Below are positions 38,837 through 51,538 of a DNA stretch of 64,000 bases, in pieces. A model generated the notes under the pieces. That model saw nothing but the letters and a program-made list of their open reading frames with translations, ran no database searches and was not told where the DNA came from. Source of the stretch: a virus (Duplodnaviria; Heunggongvirae; Uroviricota; Caudoviricetes); IMG/VR virus record IMGVR_UViG_2778261667_000017; one strand, 5' to 3'. The position numbers and the translations under genes are program-made. Within the stretch, counting starts at the first letter, position 1; each line of letters begins with the position of its first letter.

Positions 38837-39534
38837 AAAACATCGCCGCACAGATGGTTAACTTTGACCGTGAGCAGATGCGTCGGATCGCCAACAACAT
38901 GCCGGAACAGTACGACGAAAAGCCGCAGGTACAGCAGGTAGCGCAGATCATCAACGGTGTGTTCAGCCAGTTACTGGCAACTTTCCCGGCGAGTCTGGCT
39001 AACCGTGACCAGAACGAACTGAACGAAATCCGCCGCCAGTGGGTTCTGGCTTTCCGGGAAAACGGGATCACCACAATGGAACAGGTTAACGCAGGAATGC
39101 GCGTAGCCCGTCGGCAGAATCGACCATTTCTGCCATCACCCGGGCAGTTTGTTGCATGGTGCCGGGAAGAAGCATCCGTTATCGCCGGACTGCCAAACGT
39201 CAGCGAGCTGGTTGATATGGTTTACGAGTATTGCCGGAAGCGAGGCCTGTATCCGGATGCGGAGTCTTATCCGTGGAAATCAAACGCGCACTACTGGCTG
39301 GTTACCAACCTGTATCAGAACATGCGGGCCAATGCGCTTACTGATGCGGAATTACGCCGTAAGGCCGCAGATGAGCTTGTCCATATGACTGCGAGAATTA
39401 ACCGTGGTGAGGCGATCCCTGAACCAGTAAAACAACTTCCTGTCATGGGCGGTAGACCTCTAAATCGTGCACAGGCTCTGGCGAAGATCGCAGAAATCAA
39501 AGCTAAGTTCGGACTGAAAGGAGCAAGTGTATGA
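38833..39534 (+). CDS. P: replication protein P (DnaB loader)
   Basis: 233 aa MKNIAAQMVNFDREQMRRIANNMPEQYDEKPQ, lambda P from memory. Confidence 0.9.
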   Translation: MKNIAAQMVNFDREQMRRIANNMPEQYDEKPQVQQVAQIINGVFSQLLATFPASLANRDQNELNEIRRQWVLAFRENGITTMEQVNAGMRVARRQNRPFLPSPGQFVAWCREEASVIAGLPNVSELVDMVYEYCRKRGLYPDAESYPWKSNAHYWLVTNLYQNMRANALTDAELRRKAADELVHMTARINRGEAIPEPVKQLPVMGGRPLNRAQALAKIAEIKAKFGLKGASV

Positions 39535-39821
39535 CGGGCAAAGAGGCAATTATTCATTACCTGGGGACGCATAATAGCTTCTGTGCGCCGGACGTTGCCG
39601 CGCTAACAGGCGCAACAGTAACCAGCATAAATCAGGCCGCGGCTAAAATGGCACGGGCAGGTCTTCTGGTTATCGAAGGTAAGGTCTGGCGAACGGTGTA
39701 TTACCGGTTTGCTACCAGGGAAGAACGGGAAGGAAAGATGAGCACGAACCTGGTTTTTAAGGAGTGTCGCCAGAGTGCCGCGATGAAACGGGTATTGGCG
39801 GTATATGGAGTTAAAAGATGA
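39531..39821 (+). CDS. ren: Ren
   Basis: 96 aa MTGKEAIIHYLGTHNSFCAPDVAALTGATV, lambda Ren from memory. Confidence 0.8.
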   Translation: MTGKEAIIHYLGTHNSFCAPDVAALTGATVTSINQAAAKMARAGLLVIEGKVWRTVYYRFATREEREGKMSTNLVFKECRQSAAMKRVLAVYGVKR

Positions 39822-39894
39822 CCATCTACATTACTGAGCTAATAACAGGCCTGCTGGTAATCGCAGGCCTTTTTATTTGGGGGAGAGGGAAGTC

Positions 39895-40335
39895 ATGAAA
39901 AAACTAACCTTTGAAATTCGATCTCCAGCACATCAGCAAAACGCTATTCACGCAGTACAGCAAATCCTTCCAGACCCAACCAAACCAATCGTAGTAACCA
40001 TTCAGGAACGCAACCGCAGCTTAGACCAAAACAGGAAGCTATGGGCCTGCTTAGGTGACGTCTCTCGTCAGGTTGAATGGCATGGTCGCTGGCTGGATGC
40101 AGAAAGCTGGAAGTGTGTGTTTACCGCAGCATTAAAGCAGCAGGATGTTGTTCCTAACCTTGCCGGGAATGGCTTTGTGGTAATAGGCCAGTCAACCAGC
40201 AGGATGCGTGTAGGCGAATTTGCGGAGCTATTAGAGCTTATACAGGCATTCGGTACAGAGCGTGGCGTTAAGTGGTCAGACGAAGCGCGACTGGCTCTCG
40301 AATGGAAAGCGCGATGGGGAGACAGGGCGGCATGA
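39895..40335 (+). CDS. ninB: NinB recombination protein
   Basis: [28 protein letters not shown], lambda NinB from memory. Confidence 0.85.
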
Positions 40336-40508
40336 GACGACAGCGACGAAGTATCACCGACATCATCTGCGAAAACTGCAAATACCTTCCAACGAAGCGC
40401 TCCAGAAATAAACGCAAGCCAATCCCAAAAGAATCTGACGTAAAAACCTTCAATTACACAGCTCACCTGTGGGATATCCGGTGGCTAAGATATTGTGCGA
40501 GGAAATGA
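40332..40508 (+). CDS. NinD-like small protein
   Basis: [24 protein letters not shown]; small basic protein in the nin region. Confidence 0.5.
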
Positions 40509-40510
40509 CA

Positions 40511-40852
40511 ATGGATTATTCACAGTTAAGTGATTTTGAAATTAACAGAATGGTAGGAGACATAATTTTTAAAGGCCTTTGGGCAAGTAAACCGGAAACA
40601 TCAGGGAATAACACCAACAAATGGTATTACGGAAATGCTGATACAACTTTTGAGCCATTAAATCATTTGCCTGACTACTGCAATGATCCGAGCGCTTCAT
40701 GGCCGATTATTGAGAAATACAGGATTTCTATCTTAGACCAGTTAACTGAATGGTGTGTGGATGCAAAAGGCGTAAGCCCAATATTTGATACCAGACCTCT
40801 CCGCGCCGCCATGATTGTCTTTCTCCTGATGCAGGAGGCCAATAATGCTTAG
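40511..40852 (+). CDS. hypothetical nin-region protein
   Basis: 113 aa [18 protein letters not shown]. Confidence 0.45.
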
Positions 40853-41066
40853 CCCATCTCAATCCCTTCAATCCCTTCAATCCCTTCAATCCCTTCAATA
40901 CCTGAAAGGAAGCATAGAGCGGGCTTCAATGTGCACAGAGTGGATTCTATCTAGGTTTAGCGCATACAGAAGATTGCCGGTAAAGGGCATGCCAAGCAAG
41001 TCGATGCTGCATATGCAAAAGAATGCGCGCTGGAAGGTATGGCGAGAACACAGGTTATCTGGCTGA
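40845..41066 (+). CDS. hypothetical small protein containing an in-frame SLQ x4 repeat
   Basis: 73 aa; 9 bp tandem repeat at 40861..40896. Confidence 0.35.
40861..40896. repeat. 9 bp tandem repeat (aatcccttc x4)
   Basis: Four perfect tandem copies read directly from the sequence. Confidence 0.9.
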
Positions 41067-41085
41067 AAGAGGGGGTTATTAAGGC

Positions 41086-41448
41086 GTGAATACCTACAGC
41101 ATCACATTACCCTGGCCTCCGAGCAATAATCGCTATTACCGCCATAATCGCGGGCGCACGCACGTCAGCGCAGAGGGGCAGGCATACCGCGATAACGTCG
41201 CCCGAATCATTAAAAACGCAATGCTGGATATCGGCCTGGCTATGCCTGTGAAAATCCGCATTGAGTGCCACATGCCGGATCGCCGTCGCCGTGACCTGGA
41301 TAATCTGCAAAAAGCCGCTTTTGACGCACTCACTAAAGCAGGTTTCTGGCTGGATGATGCTCAGGTCGTTGATTACCGCGTTGTGAAGATGCCTGTTACC
41401 AAAGGTGGGAGGCTGGAACTGACCATCACCGAAATGGGGAATGAATGA
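41086..41448 (+). CDS. rusA: RusA Holliday-junction resolvase
   Basis: 120 aa [26 protein letters not shown], matches K-12 DLP12 RusA from memory. Confidence 0.9.
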
Positions 41449-41585
41449 TGTTTGAGTTTAATATGGCAGAACTTCTTCGCCACCGCTGGGGGCGTCTGCG
41501 CTTATATCGTTTCCCCGGTTCTGTTTTGACCGATTACCGAATACTGAAGAATTACGCCAAAACACTGACAGGAGCAGGAGTATGA
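41445..41585 (+). CDS. ylcG: YlcG-like small protein
   Basis: [27 protein letters not shown]; below the ORF-track cut-off; end coordinate approximate. Confidence 0.45.
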
Positions 41586-41670
41586 AGTCAGAGATAACAA
41601 TCAACTAATACTGTTTTGTTGATTTTTGCTTGTAATTGGCGTTCTGGTCTGAGTTTTGTGGAGTAAGTTG

Positions 41671-42048
41671 ATGCGTGATATTCAGATGGTTCTTGAGCGT
41701 TGGGGAGCGTGGGCGGCTAATAATCATGAAGATGTGACCTGGTCGTCCATTGCCGCCGGTTTTAAGGGATTAATTCCTTCAAAAGTAAAATCTCGCCCAC
41801 AATGTTGTGACGATGACGCGATGATCATTTGCGGGTGCATGGCCCGTCTGAAAAAGAACAACAGCGATTTGCATGATTTATTGGTGGACTATTATGTCGG
41901 CGGCATGACTTTTATGGCGCTTGCACGTAAGCATGGGCGATCTGATTGTTGGGTTGGCAGGATGCTCCAGAAAGCTGAGGGCGTAGTGGAGGGTATGCTG
42001 ATGGTGTTGGATCTCCGATTGGAGATGGATGCTGATTGTTCGAAATAA
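41671..42048 (+). CDS. late-gene antiterminator Q (QuuD-like)
   Basis: [36 protein letters not shown]; paralog of the prophage A Q. Confidence 0.85.
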
Positions 42049-42146
42049 TTAAAGGAAAAGTTGCTGTCTGATTGTCATTAGTCTAACATTTTAAATGTTG
42101 GAATCGCAACGTAGTTATTATCATATAACAGCTTGTTTCCTGATTT

Positions 42147-42176
42147 AGCCAGCCTCCCCAAAGGCTGGTTTTTTTC
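42147..42176 (+). terminator. intrinsic terminator downstream of Q (tR'-like)
   Basis: ccagcct-ccccaa-aggctgg hairpin followed by a run of seven T. Confidence 0.55.
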
Positions 42177-42203
42177 TAATAAGTATTATTTCGAGTAGGG
42201 ATT

Positions 42204-42728
42204 TTATTGTTTAACCCATAATAATTCATTGACATTGAATCCCAACTTTTGAGCGGTTCGCACATAGTCTGCTTTTACTTTATCTGGAATAGTTGGGGTC
42301 CTTGCCAGAATCCATAGGTATTCTCTGTTCGGACCACTGACAAGAGCATACTTATACTCATCATCCAGTTTGATTACATTATAGCCACCATAGAAGGGGC
42401 CAAAAAACGAAACCTTCAACGCTGCAGTTTTAGTATCTCCAGTAAAGTATGCTTTACCTTCGCTCTCGCTCCATTTATTTTTCGTTGGATCGTATCCACG
42501 GTTAAGTACACGAATCCCTCCGTCGTTCCGTTTTCCATAAGTAGCGCTGACCTGTTCCAGACCACGTTCGAACCGGTTCTCGAGGCGAGCTATTTCATAC
42601 CACTTTCCGAGGTAGCGGTTGGCGTCAAAATTTGTAATCGGCTGCACACCTTTAGGTGGTGTCGGGGCCTTACATGCTATAAGAGTGAAAGAGAGTGCAA
42701 TGCCAGTCAACACAGGCCATAACATCAT
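42204..42728 (-). CDS. outer-membrane lipocalin lipoprotein (Blc-like)
   Basis: 174 aa; lipobox LIAC; NFDANRYLGKWYEIARLENRFERG and SFFGPFYGGYNVI resemble E. coli Blc from memory. Confidence 0.75.
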   Translation of the reverse strand: MMLWPVLTGIALSFTLIACKAPTPPKGVQPITNFDANRYLGKWYEIARLENRFERGLEQVSATYGKRNDGGIRVLNRGYDPTKNKWSESEGKAYFTGDTKTAALKVSFFGPFYGGYNVIKLDDEYKYALVSGPNREYLWILARTPTIPDKVKADYVRTAQKLGFNVNELLWVKQ

Positions 42729-42920
42729 AATAAATCCTGTACTTTTGATAGTTGAGAGTAAGTATGAAAGATAGATGATTACGACCGATCACTTAAAGAA
42801 CTTTCATACTATATTAGGAATAGTCCATAACAGAAAAATTGTCAGTGATGACGCCATAAAGGCAATTTAGTCCGTGCACTACACAGTTTATGTGTTAATG
42901 AATTAGTCAAGGGGGAGGAT

Positions 42921-43880
42921 ATGATAAAAAAACCTGTGATTGGAATCAGCGGTTGTTTGGCCGGTTCTGCTGTTCGTTTTGATGGTGGTCACAAAAGAGC
43001 TGACTTTTTAATGGACAAATTAGTGGAATGGGTAACATTCAGACCAGTATGTCCGGAAATGGCTATAGGGCTGCCAGTTCCGCGTCCTGCTCTACGTCTT
43101 GTGCGCTCGACGCAAGGAAATATACGGATGTGTTTCAGCCACGACCAGAATGAGGATGTGACAGAGAGAATGACAGAGTTTAGTCGTTCTTATATGGACA
43201 AATTAAAGGATGTATCGGGGTTTGTGGTTTGTGCTAAATCTCCCAGCTGTGGCATGGAGCGCGTGCGTGTCTATGATGAAAATGGTAATCGAGGTCGTAA
43301 AGATGGAGTGGGACTATTTACGAGCACTTTGATGGAAAAGTTTTCCTGGCTACCGGTTGAAGAGGATGGGCGATTACATGATCCAGTGCTTCGTGAGAAT
43401 TTTGTTGAAAGAGTTTTTGCTTTGCATGAGCTCAATCACCTTTACAAGGAGAAATTATCAAGAAGAGAGTTATTAGCTTTTCATAGTCGTTATAAGCTTC
43501 AGTTGTTGGCGCATAGTCAGGCAGGCTATAAAGATATGGGACCATTTGTGGCTGCAATACACGAGTGGGCGGACCTTGAATCATACTTTGAGGTGTATCG
43601 TGATAAGCTGATGGCGATTCTCAGAAAACCTGCATCACGTAAAAATCACACGAATGTGCTGATGCATATACAGGGGTATTTTAGTAACTACTTAAGTACA
43701 CGCCAGCGTAAAGAGTTGAGCGAGGTTATACTTAACTATCGTTCTGGCACATTACCTCTTCTTGCGCCGTTGACTCTGCTGAAGCATTATCTGGGTGAGT
43801 ATCCTAATGATTACTTGCTTACACAGAATTACTTCGATCCCTATCCGGACGAACTGGCTCTAAGACTGATGGTAAATTAA
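42921..43880 (+). CDS. DUF523/DUF1722 two-domain protein (YbgA/TudS-like)
   Basis: 319 aa; N-terminus PVIGISGCLAGSAVRFDGGHKR typical of DUF523 as I recall it. Confidence 0.6.
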   Translation: MIKKPVIGISGCLAGSAVRFDGGHKRADFLMDKLVEWVTFRPVCPEMAIGLPVPRPALRLVRSTQGNIRMCFSHDQNEDVTERMTEFSRSYMDKLKDVSGFVVCAKSPSCGMERVRVYDENGNRGRKDGVGLFTSTLMEKFSWLPVEEDGRLHDPVLRENFVERVFALHELNHLYKEKLSRRELLAFHSRYKLQLLAHSQAGYKDMGPFVAAIHEWADLESYFEVYRDKLMAILRKPASRKNHTNVLMHIQGYFSNYLSTRQRKELSEVILNYRSGTLPLLAPLTLLKHYLGEYPNDYLLTQNYFDPYPDELALRLMVN

Positions 43881-44221
43881 TTGTATGCGATATCATCCAA
43901 AAGGATGAGTTCCTGCATGCAGGATATTTACAATCGTAAAAACCACACTATGATACCCAGAGTGTCAGTTTGTATAAAAACTCTGTTTACGCTGAAGAAA
44001 CAATTGAGATGCAACTTAAAGTTGGTAAACATGCCAGTCAAAATATATAATATTATGATTCCACGCAGCTATATATAATATAACAGATTGGTTTAATAAT
44101 TTGTCTTTGTGAGTTAAATACATAATTTTATACTTGTGATGCAATGAAATTTTCCTTATTGTTGAACTGGCGAATATTGATTTTCCACCTATACTTACCT
44201 GTGTAACCCCAATGATATCAG

Positions 44222-44962
44222 GTGGATAATATGCCATACATATGTTCTATCATTTTGGTGTTGAACTCGTTTGATGTCCGAATTGGTAAAGAAGATATTT
44301 TGTTTAAAAAAGGAAGTGCTGTTCTCATTGATTACAATTTAAAAGATTTTTTTTCATCAAATATAGATCATGTAATGATCGTAGATGTTGAAGAGAAAAC
44401 AGTTAATGATTTCTTTAAAAGCAACACACTCTCACCTTTTTCTGTAAGAAGGTTTTATCCGGCATACTTGATGGTGGAATGTGAAGATTTTTCATTGTTA
44501 AAGAACTTGATTGCATGCTTGAATTGTGATGGCAGAACTGTGGATTTTGTTAGAAATCAAATATCACTTGCATGTCTTGCTATCTTATCTTCAGAGAAAA
44601 TAGTGCAAAGTTTTTTATTTGGATGTCTTAATAGTTTAGGAAGTAAAGTTAAGGCTATTATTCACACGGATATATCTGCAGCATGGAGACTTTGTGATAT
44701 ATCTTCAAGACTGTATCTGAGTGAAAGTCTGTTAAAAAGAAAATTAAAGCACGAAGGCTTATCATTTAGTAAGTTAATTCTTGAAGAGCGAATGGTGATG
44801 GCGGAAAGGTTATTAAGCTACAATTTATATTCTGTTGGAAAAGTTGCTGAGATATGCGGTTATGAAAACACGTCATATTTTGTAAGTGTTTTCAGAAGGT
44901 ATTTTGGTGTTCCTCCCCATCAATATTCATCAAGATTTTTTTTAGAAAAAGACATGATGTAA
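44222..44962 (+). CDS. AraC-family transcriptional regulator (AppY/GadX-like)
   Basis: 246 aa, AT-rich; C-terminal helix-turn-helix VAEICGYENTSYFVSVFRRYFGVPPHQY. Confidence 0.75.
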   Translation: MDNMPYICSIILVLNSFDVRIGKEDILFKKGSAVLIDYNLKDFFSSNIDHVMIVDVEEKTVNDFFKSNTLSPFSVRRFYPAYLMVECEDFSLLKNLIACLNCDGRTVDFVRNQISLACLAILSSEKIVQSFLFGCLNSLGSKVKAIIHTDISAAWRLCDISSRLYLSESLLKRKLKHEGLSFSKLILEERMVMAERLLSYNLYSVGKVAEICGYENTSYFVSVFRRYFGVPPHQYSSRFFLEKDMM

Positions 44963-45149
44963 CGTGATGCGTTTTAATGATTTTGTAATTTTCGTATTTG
45001 ATAATTGTATGATGCTTTCAGCTACGCCAGAATAATCGCGGCGTTTTTCTTTTTGAATAGATGTTCAAGCCTTACGCTAATGTAACTTCTATACCTTTCC
45101 TCTTCGTTCCGAACCGTGTACACCATCCGTTATTTGCGGAGGTGAGGCT

Positions 45150-45365
45150 ATGAAATCCATGGATAAGTTAACAACGGGCATTGCCTACGGCACCTCCGCA
45201 GGCAGTGCTGGCTACTGGTTTTTACAGCTGCTCGATAAAGTCACGCCCTCACAGTGGGCAGCAATAGGTGTGCTGGGTAGCTTGGTATTTGGCCTGCTGA
45301 CGTACCTGACAAACCTTTATTTCAAGATTAAAGAAGATAAGCGCAAGGCTGCGAGAGGTGAATAA
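45150..45365 (+). CDS. pinholin (phage 21 S-like) with dual-start motif MKSM
   Basis: 71 aa [31 protein letters not shown], phage 21 S from memory. Confidence 0.85.
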
Positions 45366-45862
45366 TGCCTCCATCATTACGAAAAGCCGTTGCTGCTGCT
45401 ATTGGTGGCGGAGCAATTGCTATAGCATCAGTGTTAATCACTGGCCCAAGTGGTAACGATGGTCTGGAAGGTGTCAGCTACATACCATACAAAGATATTG
45501 TTGGTGTATGGACTGTATGTCACGGGCATACAGGAAAAGACATCATGCTCGGTAAAACGTATACCAAAGCAGAATGCAAAGCCCTCCTGAATAAAGACCT
45601 TGCCACGGTCGCCAGACAAATTAACCCGTACATAAAAGTTGATATACCGGAAACAACGCGCGGCGCTCTTTACTTGTTCGTTTACAACGTGGGCGCTGGC
45701 AATTTCAGAACATCGACGCTTCTTCGCAAAATAAACCAGGGCGATATCAAAGGCGCATGTGATCAGCTACGTCGCTGGACATATGCTGGCGGTAAGCAAT
45801 GGAAAGGTCTCATGACTCGTCGTGAGATTGAGCGTGAAATCTGTTTGTGGGGTCAGCAATGA
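45365..45862 (+). CDS. SAR endolysin (phage 21 R-like lysozyme)
   Basis: 165 aa; N-terminal signal-anchor-release segment [18 protein letters not shown]. Confidence 0.85.
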
Positions 45863-46320
45863 ACAGAGTAACCGCGATTATCTCCGCTCTGGTTATCTGC
45901 ATCATCGTTTGCCTGTCATGGGCTGTTAATCATTACCGTGATAACGCCATTACCTACAAAGCCCAGCGCGACAAAAATGCCAGAGAACTGAAGCTGGCGA
46001 ACGCGGCAATTACTGACATGCAGATGCGTCAGCGTGATGTTGCTGCGCTCGATGCAAAATACACGAAGGAGTTAGCTGATGCGAAAGCTGAAAATGATGC
46101 TCTGCGTGATGATGTTGCCGCTGGTCGTCGTCGGTTGCACATCAAAGCAGTCTGTCAGTCAGTGCGTGAAGCCACCACCGCCTCCGGCGTGGATAATGCA
46201 GCCTCCCCCCGACTGGCAGACACCGCTGAACGGGATTATTTCACCCTCAGAGAGAGGCTGATCACTATGCAAAAACAACTGGAAGGAACCCAGAAGTATA
46301 TTAATGAGCAGTGCAGATAG
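45847..46320 (+). CDS. i-spanin Rz
   Basis: 157 aa [36 protein letters not shown], lambda Rz from memory. Confidence 0.9.
46079..46261 (+). CDS. o-spanin Rz1 lipoprotein, embedded in Rz
   Basis: 60 aa; lipobox VVGC, proline-rich; +1 frame inside Rz. Confidence 0.8.
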
Positions 46321-46351
46321 AGCTGCCCATATCGATGGGCAACTCATGCAA

Positions 46352-46645
46352 TTATTGTGAGCAATACACACGCGCTTCCAGCGGAGTATAAATGCCTAAA
46401 GTAATAAAACCGAGAAATCCATTTACGAATGTTTGCTGGGTTTCTGTTTTAACAACATTTTCTGCGCCGCCACAAATTTTGGCTGCATCAACAGTTTTCT
46501 CCTGTCCAATTCCCGAAACGAAGAAATGATGGGTGATGGTTTCCTTTGGTGTTACTGCTGTCGGTTTGTTTCCAACAGTAAACGTCTGTTGAGCACATCC
46601 TGTAATAAGCATTGCCAGAGCGGCAGAAAACAACATTTTTTTCAT
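46352..46645 (-). CDS. bor: Bor lipoprotein (serum-resistance family)
   Basis: MKKMLFSAALAMLITGCAQQTF; start at the internal Met; lambda Bor-like. Confidence 0.8.
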   Translation of the reverse strand: MKKMLFSAALAMLITGCAQQTFTVGNKPTAVTPKETITHHFFVSGIGQEKTVDAAKICGGAENVVKTETQQTFVNGFLGFITLGIYTPLEARVYCSQ

Positions 46646-46812
46646 CTTATTATCCTGCATTGTTAAAAACGGCAGAATCCTATGTGACAACAATTAAACG
46701 ATAGTTAAATGGATTGATGAAAATTAAAACTATATAGGTGGATGCTCAGCCTATTGGAGGAGGGGGGGCACTCAGAATCCTGTGGAATGAAATAAACCGC
46801 TCTATCTGTCCA

Positions 46813-47037
46813 TTACCCTTTTAGCTGCGCTGTATCGTCGCCGTATTCCCGCATTAACCATGACCGTAGCCCGACGGGGAATTCCTTCTGCGTGAGTGTG
46901 CGGGAATAATCAAAAACGATGCTCACCGGGTTTTTACCGCGTTTATGGTTCGCGGGGGTGTCCCTCATGCTCGCCAGTCCTGTGCGGGGGTGGAAGAAAC
47001 AGGACGTGTATTCAGGTCTGTGTGACTGTGGTCGCAA
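46813..47037 (-). CDS. hypothetical ORF between bor and cos
   Basis: 74 aa ORF, GC-rich; may be non-coding. Confidence 0.25.
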   Translation of the reverse strand: MRPQSHRPEYTSCFFHPRTGLASMRDTPANHKRGKNPVSIVFDYSRTLTQKEFPVGLRSWLMREYGDDTAQLKG

Positions 47038-47122
47038 GACTTTTGTCGTTCAGCTATGAAATCCCATTACGAAGTAGACCAGAACGGCCAACGGGTCCTT
47101 TCCGGCGATCCGACAGGTTACG

Positions 47123-47134
47123 GGGCGGCGACCT
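47123..47134. other. cosN cohesive-end site (gggcggcgacct), with cosB immediately downstream to about 47300
   Basis: Exact lambda left-end 12-mer, preceded by cgacaggttacg (lambda right end) and followed by the lambda cosB region, all from memory. Confidence 0.85.
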
Positions 47135-47311
47135 CGCGGGTTTTCGCTATTTATGAAAATTTTCCGGTTTAAGGCGTTTCCGTTCTTCTTCGTCGTAACT
47201 TAATGTTTTTATTTAAAATACCCCCTGAAAAGAAAGGAAACGACAGGTGCTGAAAGCGAGCTTTTTGGCCTCTGTCGTTTCCTTTCTCTGTTTTTGTCCG
47301 TGGAATGAGCA

Positions 47312-47831
47312 ATGGAAGTCAACAAAAAGCAGCTGGCTGACATTTTCGGTGCGAGTATCCGTACCATTCAGAACTGGCAGGAACAGGGAATGCCCGTTCT
47401 GCGAGGCGGTGGCAAGGGTAATGAGGTGCTTTATGACTCTGCCGCCGTCATAAAATGGTATGCCGAAAGGGATGCTGAAATTGAGAACGAAAAGCTGCGC
47501 CGGGAGGTTGAAGAACTGCGGCAGGCCAGCGAGGCAGATCTCCAGCCAGGGACTATTGAGTACGAACGCCATCGACTTACGCGTGCGCAGGCCGACGCAC
47601 AGGAACTGAAGAATGCCAGAGACTCCGCTGAAGTGGTGGAAACCGCATTCTGTACTTTCGTGTTGTCGCGGATCGCAGGTGAAATTGCCAGTATTCTCGA
47701 CGGGATCCCCCTGTCGGTGCAGCGGCGTTTTCCGGAACTGGAAAACCGACATGTTGATTTCCTGAAACGGGATATCATCAAAGCCATGAACAAAGCAGCC
47801 GCGCTGGATGAACTGATACCGGGGTTGCTGA

Positions 47832-47857
<26 letters not shown>
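47312..47857 (+). CDS. nu1: terminase small subunit Nu1
   Basis: MEVNKKQLADIFGASIRTIQNWQEQGMPV, lambda Nu1 from memory. Confidence 0.95.

Positions 47858-51538
<3,681 letters not shown>

Follow-up and report, generated by a model that had tools for sequence, protein, structure and literature searches.

Why would a lambda-like prophage of Escherichia coli carry, between its late antiterminator and its lysis genes, one gene for a lipocalin, one for a predicted tRNA desulfidase and one for an AraC-type regulator? The question is raised by a 64,000-nucleotide (nt) stretch of caudoviral DNA (IMG/VR record IMGVR_UViG_2778261667_000017), referred to below as the window. At 41.6-46.7 kb the window holds the part of a lambda-like E. 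coli prophage that governs late expression and lysis, and according to the open reading frames (ORFs) of the window and their Pfam matches, three intact ORFs and no others lie between a tR'-like terminator and a P21-type holin gene. The reading favored here, with a probability of roughly 0.72, is that these genes, termed blc, rudS and araC below, form a composite moron cassette whose two modules differ in origin and which is lodged in the Q-to-holin slot of an intact-looking prophage. The genes and the elements that bound them are as follows.

41671-42048, + strand: gene for the Q antiterminator, QuuD-like and distant from Q21 (Pfam Phage_antitermQ, 2.5e-51)
42147-42177, + strand: tR'-like intrinsic terminator with a 9-base-pair stem (5 GC pairs), a 6-nt loop and a T7 run
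42204-42728, - strand: blc-like gene for an outer-membrane lipocalin lipoprotein of 174 amino acids (Lipocalin_2 and NCBIfam Blc)
42921-43880, + strand: rudS, a TudS (DUF523)-DUF1722 fusion encoding a predicted tRNA 4-thiouridine desulfidase of 319 amino acids (Pfam and identity to RudS_vir)
44231-44962, + strand: araC, encoding a PatE-like AraC-type regulator of 243 amino acids (HTH_18, 1e-14; HTH_AraC, 2e-11)
45150-46320, + strand: lysis cassette comprising the essD holin, rrrD lysozyme and rzpD/rzoD spanin genes (Pfam Phage_holin_2_1, Phage_lysozyme and Phage_lysis)

The slot is delimited by comparison with DLP12 of E. coli K-12. Homology to that prophage breaks off at 42030 and returns at 45139, with flanking DNA that is 92-96% identical, so that the cassette replaces exactly the nmpC segment. 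In PhiR11_1 the same slot holds an intact ompD-type porin gene. The three genes are a moron in the sense that they lie between Q/tR' and the holin gene, at a site where DLP12 and PhiR11_1 have a porin gene instead. In Shiga-toxin phages, the slot between Q/tR' and the holin gene is occupied by stx. The initial annotation had placed the genes downstream of a tR'-like terminator and in the position of nmpC in DLP12, and both statements hold: the alignment fixes the position, and the hairpin, in addition to its stem and T7 run, folds at -19.1 kcal/mol (z = -4.45, with 0 of 200 shuffles as stable) and is conserved in Escherichia phage 1H12. On the left, the Q gene appears as a 378-nt RefSeq coding sequence in near-identical genomes and shares 92.5% nucleotide identity with DLP12 quuD, up to 42030; its product matches Q21 in the Protein Data Bank (6p18) at E = 2e-8. 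On the right, the lysis cassette forms the downstream boundary, with an antisense bor gene after Rz/Rz1. PhiR11_1 aligns to window positions 39001-64000 with 96.5% identity over 86% of the length, and similar matches to 39-64 kb are found in mEp332 (85%) and IdasGreatGrand (84%). Since the phage matches cover the terminase, portal, tape-measure and J genes, the 39-64 kb prophage part looks intact. The GC content of positions 39001-64000 is 53%, and that of blc, rudS and araC is 44%, 43% and 31.8%, respectively.

The composite nature of the cassette emerges when its parts are followed into other genomes. A survey of rudS genes, based on one genome per species, yielded 64 loci, two of which were set aside as mis-binned phage DNA. 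The remaining 62 show 66-77% identity and come from Citrobacter, Enterobacter, Leclercia, Kluyvera, Klebsiella, Pectobacterium and others. A divergent lipocalin gene stands upstream of rudS at 41 of these 62 loci, mostly at 76-81% identity (range 69-81%), and the rudS-linked lipocalins are closer to the window lipocalin than is the Blc that E. coli itself encodes. At most of the 41 loci an MlrA-like gene of the MerR family, usually together with a transthyretin-like gene, is found between blc and rudS; in Citrobacter sedlakii and a second Citrobacter no gene separates them, an arrangement shared with the phage. No Q, holin, lysozyme or araC relative is present at any of the 62 chromosomal rudS loci. 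The occurrence of divergent blc at chromosomal loci free of phage genes argues that the blc-rudS pair is chromosomal in origin. The pair would have been copied from an enterobacterial chromosomal locus without the MlrA-like regulator, and it lost this MerR-type regulator on its way into the phage. The spacer between blc and rudS is nearly identical in 1H12 and does not align to the Citrobacter chromosomal spacers, so that no ancestral operator can be traced.

The araC gene points in another direction. The search for relatives turned up E. coli-type sequences only, in lambdoid prophage settings and as a rule immediately upstream of a holin gene. Three of them, 64%, 56% and 49% identical, adjoin Q and/or a P21-type holin gene in other lambdoid prophages: P0013 directly follows Q at a contig end, P0023 directly precedes a holin gene, and P0015 has Q on one side and the holin gene on the other. 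Two of the neighboring Q proteins belong to other families (PF03589 beside P0013 and PF06323 beside P0015). At the DNA level, homology extends from the 3' half of araC through the spacer into the holin gene, and upstream it starts about 16-19 nt before the araC start (~44212). By this evidence araC looks like an older partner of the P21-type holin, with which it seems to form a conserved unit. The simplest history is one in which Q-tR'-araC-holin came first and blc-rudS was inserted later between tR' and araC. Assembled in this manner, the cargo would represent a chromosomal gene pair that left its regulator behind and landed between a late terminator and a regulator-holin pair of greater age. 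All three genes had been described as non-phage cargo, a label that stands for blc and rudS, which have chromosomal enterobacterial relatives, and fails for araC, the family of which was found only in lambdoid prophage contexts. Salmonella ORF242, which lies beside ORF319, was considered as a relative of araC and rejected: the regulator of ORF319 is of the MerR family (PMC11417400), and no araC relative is found at chromosomal rudS loci.

The rudS gene is close to one that has already been characterized. The RudS family, described in 2024, consists of [4Fe-4S] desulfidases that strip 4-thiouridine (s4U) from tRNA (PMC11417400). The window protein combines a 2-thiour_desulf domain (PF04463, residues 7-149, 3e-40) with a DUF1722 domain (PF08349, residues 192-309, 2e-40). 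It is identical to RudS_vir, the gp66 product of 1H12, at 298 of 319 positions (93%) and to the IdasGreatGrand copy at 318 of 319. Its Cys12, Cys44 and Cys110 share their numbering with RudS_vir and RudS_ST (Table 1, PMC11417400). Glu46 in a C-P-E motif and Ser107 and Ser109 in an S-P-S-C motif are spaced from these cysteines as the catalytic Glu51, Ser111 and Ser113 of RudS_KT are, and this spacing suggests that they are equivalent. The C-terminal half is 49% identical to YbgA of K-12, a strain that has only this DUF1722 protein and no RudS. Overexpression of RudS_vir in E. coli lowered tRNA s4U, more weakly than some orthologues did, and the growth delay induced by ultraviolet A (UVA) light was reduced by RudS expression (PMC11417400). 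Given its 93% identity to RudS_vir, the window RudS is predicted to remove s4U from tRNA. No photolyase linkage like that of K-12 ybgA-phr was found within 5 kb of any rudS locus scanned. According to two reviews, RudS is missing from E. coli (PMC11417400, PMC13602947), which is true of K-12 and not of the species; in PMC11417400 the word 'prophage' is absent, and the few mentions of 'phage' or 'viral' concern the gene source only.

The lipocalin matches Lipocalin_2 (PF08212) at 7e-44 and the NCBIfam Blc model (NF007786) with 314 bits, above the cutoff of 267. Its signal peptide, MMLWPVLTGIALSFTLIAC, contains, as read from the translation, an L-I-A-C lipobox at residues 16-19 with Cys19 and a lysine at +2. 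The protein is 60% identical to Blc of K-12 (b4149) and about 80% identical to the rudS-linked Blc paralogue of Enterobacter and Leclercia. Lipocalin WP_000780581.1 differs from it by one residue, which lies in the signal peptide; that protein was quantified in a clinical E. coli proteome, where it rose 2-3 fold after meropenem, and is labeled 'outer membrane' in a table of the same study (PMC13459554). The window lipocalin is likewise predicted to reside in the outer membrane of the lysogen.

The third product starts at a RefSeq ATG at 44231, with a GTG at 44222 also open (246 amino acids). Its closest characterized relative is PatE of O157:H7 Sakai (ECs_0287 = Z0321), to which it aligns without gaps over 235 of its 243 residues at 54% identity (E = 2e-88). 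The likeness is unevenly spread, with 73 of 101 residues (72%) identical in the DNA-binding half and 53 of 134 (40%) in the N-terminal half. Identities over the full length are 34% to GadW, 32% to AppY and 32% to YdeO; GadX aligns in the C-terminal domain only, at 41%. An N-terminal M..vCSVI motif is conserved among the window protein, AppY, YdeO and GadW. The scores fall far under the NCBIfam cutoffs for YdeO (127 bits vs 348) and GadX (85.5 bits vs 500), and the protein is therefore a relative of these regulators and not an orthologue. The gene is an uncharacterized branch of the PatE/PsrA/PsrB family. A 2024 review credits PatE and PsrB with the activation of gadE and hdeA and with increased survival in acid; in it, PatE, PsrA and PsrB are listed as negative regulators of the type III secretion system encoded by the enterocyte effacement locus, LEE (PMC10877973). 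With 54% homology to PatE as its basis, the window protein most likely activates acid-resistance genes such as gadE/hdeA, and a rewiring of acid resistance by it can reasonably be inferred.

Taken together, these comparisons leave the initial annotation essentially right, with its names sharpened to RudS, a PatE-like regulator and a Blc paralogue. Its homology assignments for all three genes are upheld by alignment. The DUF523 half that it had likened to thiouracil desulfurases indeed belongs to that type, within a protein that can now be named RudS from its 298 identities to RudS_vir, and the regulator that it had called AT-rich and similar to the AppY/GadX group is both (31.8% GC), with PatE as the nearest characterized relative.

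The cassette is common and routinely annotated. Taking at least 80% coverage of the 3.8-kb Q-cassette-holin segment as presence, the whole cassette is found in 979 of 5426 complete E. coli genomes, about one in five; rudS alone is found in 1136 (about 21%) and araC alone in 1033 of the same set, and the araC carriers include many human isolates. The cassette also occurs in 12 phage records, among them 1H12, the Lambda_ev series and IdasGreatGrand, which derives from swamp mud and is 99% identical. On two short contigs of a metagenome-assembled genome labeled 'Candidatus Nanosynbacter sp.', Q, essD and rrrD accompany the cassette, whose proteins are 94-100% identical; these contigs are almost certainly mis-binned E. 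coli phage DNA. In the 2018-11-3CC prophage, which has the same cassette, two large antisense genes, one for an HD-domain and one for a DUF4041 protein, lie between the replication genes and ybcN, a place where the content of the window differs, and these genes could be defense cargo.

How the three genes are expressed has to be judged from the signals around them, which comprise the following further features.

42061-42089, + strand: candidate late promoter pR', read by eye (TTGCTG, a 17-nt spacer, TAACAT)
42729-42920, no strand assigned: intergenic region between the divergent blc and rudS, 34% GC, with presumed promoters and a weak promoter-like site at 42752-42779 (+ strand)
43878-43925, + strand: stable hairpin just 3' of the rudS stop codon, with no good U-tract (-20.3 kcal/mol, z = -4.1)
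43881-44230, no strand assigned: AT-rich spacer ahead of araC, 32% GC, with promoter-like sites
45024-45054, + strand: weak hairpin and T-rich run after araC, read from the sequence

The candidate pR' lies between the Q stop codon and the terminator and would give a leader RNA of about 80 nt; a consensus scan missed it. The hairpin behind rudS could be a weak terminator or an RNA-stabilizing element. That behind araC (-8.3 kcal/mol, z = +0.74) is no better than shuffles and is at most a weak terminator. Promoter-like sites in the rudS-araC spacer are found at 43927-43954 and 44022-44051 (10/12 matches each) and at 44107-44134 (9/12). The 64-kb window has two copies of the motif ATATAACAG, one in the leader between Q and the terminator (42123-42131), where it is kept in DLP12, and one upstream of araC (44078-44086), each time within a 20-nt repeat at 42119 and 44074. 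The 1H12 allele does not retain the second of these, and two matches arose in 4 of 100 shuffles; the idea of a second Q-dependent site was dropped and the recurrence attributed to chance. A scan of 41400-45400 against Rfam returned two sub-threshold chance matches only and thus no known RNA element, and a tRNA scan of 39000-48000 found none.

In lambdoid phages, polymerase modified by Q reads past the terminator into slot cargo such as stx. Because rudS has the orientation of the late genes and a position downstream of tR', strong Q-dependent transcription is to be expected. By making polymerase terminator-resistant, Q would drive strong expression of rudS and araC across 3 kb and on into the holin gene. 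The Q-dependence of both genes is presumptive, as is their expression state in the lysogen, where low-level rudS expression may also occur. The blc gene is antisense to the late operon and must therefore use its own promoter, which fits the detection of a near-identical lipocalin in ordinary growth; transcribed in this way against the late operon, it would supply the lysogen's outer membrane with a lipocalin lipoprotein. RudS, as a [4Fe-4S] desulfidase, would convert s4U8 in host tRNA to uridine. Less s4U in tRNA means less near-ultraviolet (near-UV) cross-linking and hence a smaller delay in growth and translation. The AraC-type protein, by homology to PatE and PsrB, would activate acid-resistance genes of the gadE/hdeA type in the lysogen. 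Whether RudS amounts to a late-operon eraser of tRNA modification in lambdoid phages is a further step: Q-dependent RudS would then strip s4U after induction by sunlight or UV, and low-level expression in lysogens would shift their near-UV tolerance, a proposal that must at present be called doubtful.

Several points weigh against the reading of the locus as a composite moron cassette. The late promoter pR' at 42061-42089 is a presumptive, by-eye assignment. Promoter-like matches within the cassette number 13 vs 9.6 +/- 3.3 in shuffles, which is no excess. Published expression support covers blc only, through proteomics of the near-identical lipocalin. RudS_vir, the weaker enzyme in the published tests, was assayed from a synthetic gene by plasmid overexpression and outside the phage context (PMC11417400). 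Since the N-terminal half of the AraC-type protein is only 40% identical to that of PatE, it may respond to another signal and perhaps act on other targets. Finally, the interruption of the cassette by insertion sequences (IS) or frameshifts in a minority of genomes indicates that it is dispensable.

Alternatively, the genes might serve the lytic cycle, with RudS, made from the Q-antiterminated transcript, preventing the s4U8-C13 cross-link and the ensuing stringent stall of late proteins when sunlight or UV induces the prophage, and the AraC-type protein tuning late or lysis genes. Such a role would suit the co-orientation of rudS and araC with the late operon downstream of tR', the fact that the native MerR-type regulator of rudS was left behind, and the linkage of araC relatives to holin genes across phages, two of them beside Q of other families. 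Retention of the cassette in phage records that include isolated phages agrees with it too, as does the lessening of the UVA growth delay by RudS (PMC11417400). However, near-identical phages have a porin gene in the slot instead, and late expression leaves little time for a change of the tRNA pool. Moreover, blc runs antisense to the late transcript and a near-identical lipocalin is detected in ordinary growth (PMC13459554), and the regulons on which PatE, PsrA and PsrB work in lysogens are those of the host (PMC10877973). A primarily lytic function is thus unlikely.

A composite cassette that is maintained for its functions has also to be set against the possibility that the genes are functionless passengers, H-NS-silenced or decaying in an insertion-tolerant slot. 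Between the window lineage and the 1H12 lineage, which are separated by 0.20-0.36 synonymous substitutions per site (dS), the ratio of nonsynonymous to synonymous rates (dN/dS) increases from 0.07 in blc through 0.11 in rudS to 0.26 in araC (0.32 in its N-terminal half and 0.15 in its DNA-binding half). All three genes are under purifying selection at these values of 0.07-0.26. When E. coli genomes are compared with the window, their araC identities fall into two peaks, with 584 genomes at 99% or above and 431 at 80-90%, and rudS is at least 90% identical in every E. coli genome that has it. The araC gene, and especially its N-terminal half, has either diverged much faster than its neighbors or been exchanged.

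Disruption of the cassette is seen in at least five ways, in strains J6, ECCTRSRTH03 and 4FM and in two further genome matches. Among E. coli genomes, IS5 is found between Q and blc, IS3 in the 3' end of blc together with a frameshifted araC, IS2 between rudS and araC (strain J6) and between blc and rudS, and IS1 inside rudS and inside araC; some of these insertions probably also block late transcription into the lysis genes. These IS1, IS2, IS3 and IS5 insertions and the frameshifted araC would be at home among passengers, as would truncated araC products, which are common in the protein database (for instance P0011, of 195 amino acids, with 623 member sequences), and the AT-rich araC segment, which by its composition is probably bound by H-NS. 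Against decay stand the dN/dS values of the two allelic lineages, the activity of a RudS orthologue (PMC11417400) and the observation of a near-identical lipocalin as protein (PMC13459554). The genes are also intact, both in the window and in about 1000 genomes, and they are present in phage records that include isolated phages; together with the purifying selection, this speaks against the silent pseudogenes that the initial annotation had considered. Passengers of this kind are very improbable.

A role in anti-phage defense or counter-defense, for example a tRNA change that affects tRNA-targeting nucleases or superinfecting phages, is hardly credible: prophage slots of this type often hold defense genes, RudS acts on tRNA, a frequent target of phage-host conflict, and HD-domain and DUF4041 genes lie in the nin region of the related 2018-11-3CC prophage, but none of the three proteins matches a PADLOC model, no toxin-like partner gene is present and s4U8 is far from the anticodon loop that known defense nucleases cut.

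Around the cassette, a few features of the prophage deserve mention. Each of the three cassette proteins falls in a PHROGs family that has no assigned function. The bor-like ORF at 46352-46693 (- strand) is open for 113 amino acids in the window and is annotated with 97 in DLP12 and 1H12; the longer form extends the N-terminus ahead of the lipoprotein signal, and the real start is probably elsewhere. Upstream of the late region, between a NinX-like gene and rusA, five tandem copies of a 9-nt unit (TCAATCCCT) stand at 40859-40903, within overlapping small ORFs on both strands.

The composite cassette is real and common, and some of its parts have already been studied; it is not a new kind of system. 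The literature searched yielded no account of RudS in its prophage setting, of how frequent it is in E. coli or of the two-step assembly of the cassette. If rudS does act as a late-operon eraser, s4U physiology in E. coli would depend on prophage content. With prophage-borne rudS in 1136 of 5426 genomes, natural lysogens would provide a same-strain system for s4U erasure in vivo. The AraC-type gene, for its part, represents a branch of a family that affects acid resistance and virulence gene expression in enterohemorrhagic E. coli (EHEC), and it is present in about one-fifth of E. coli genomes.

Among the closest known loci is that of RudS_vir in Escherichia phage 1H12 (NC_049947, H3V29_gp66; Jamontas et al. 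2024, PMC11417400), which has the same protein architecture, the same cysteines and the same position between Q and holin, with blc on its left and araC on its right. The two RudS proteins differ by 21 substitutions, and the partner araC of 1H12 is only 83% identical. On the chromosomes of Enterobacter, Leclercia and Citrobacter, blc and rudS are divergent like those of the phage, which lacks their MerR regulator and transthyretin gene; the intergenic DNA is unrelated, and the phage copy stands behind a late promoter and a terminator. By published description, the ORF319 locus of Salmonella is likewise comparable: ORF319 (RudS_ST), in Salmonella pathogenicity island 2, is under the MerR-family regulator MlrB (PMC11417400). 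Blc of K-12 shares its domain, lipobox and length with the window lipocalin, which is a second, phage-borne copy nearer to the rudS-linked paralogue.

Among regulators, AppY is also prophage-borne, in DLP12, and the identity of AppY, YdeO and GadW to the window protein is too low for orthology. PatE is of similar length, is carried by a prophage and belongs with the window protein to the wider group of GadW, YdeO and AppY, but its gene is found beside an IS, at the distal end of a prophage that has degraded, whereas araC of the window lies between Q and holin. PsrA and PsrB of EHEC O157:H7, further AraC-like regulators of prophages, were compared by description only, PatE being the member that was aligned. 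As for the slot, nmpC of DLP12 and the ompD-type gene of PhiR11_1 occupy the same insertion site, which in the window holds three genes in two orientations.

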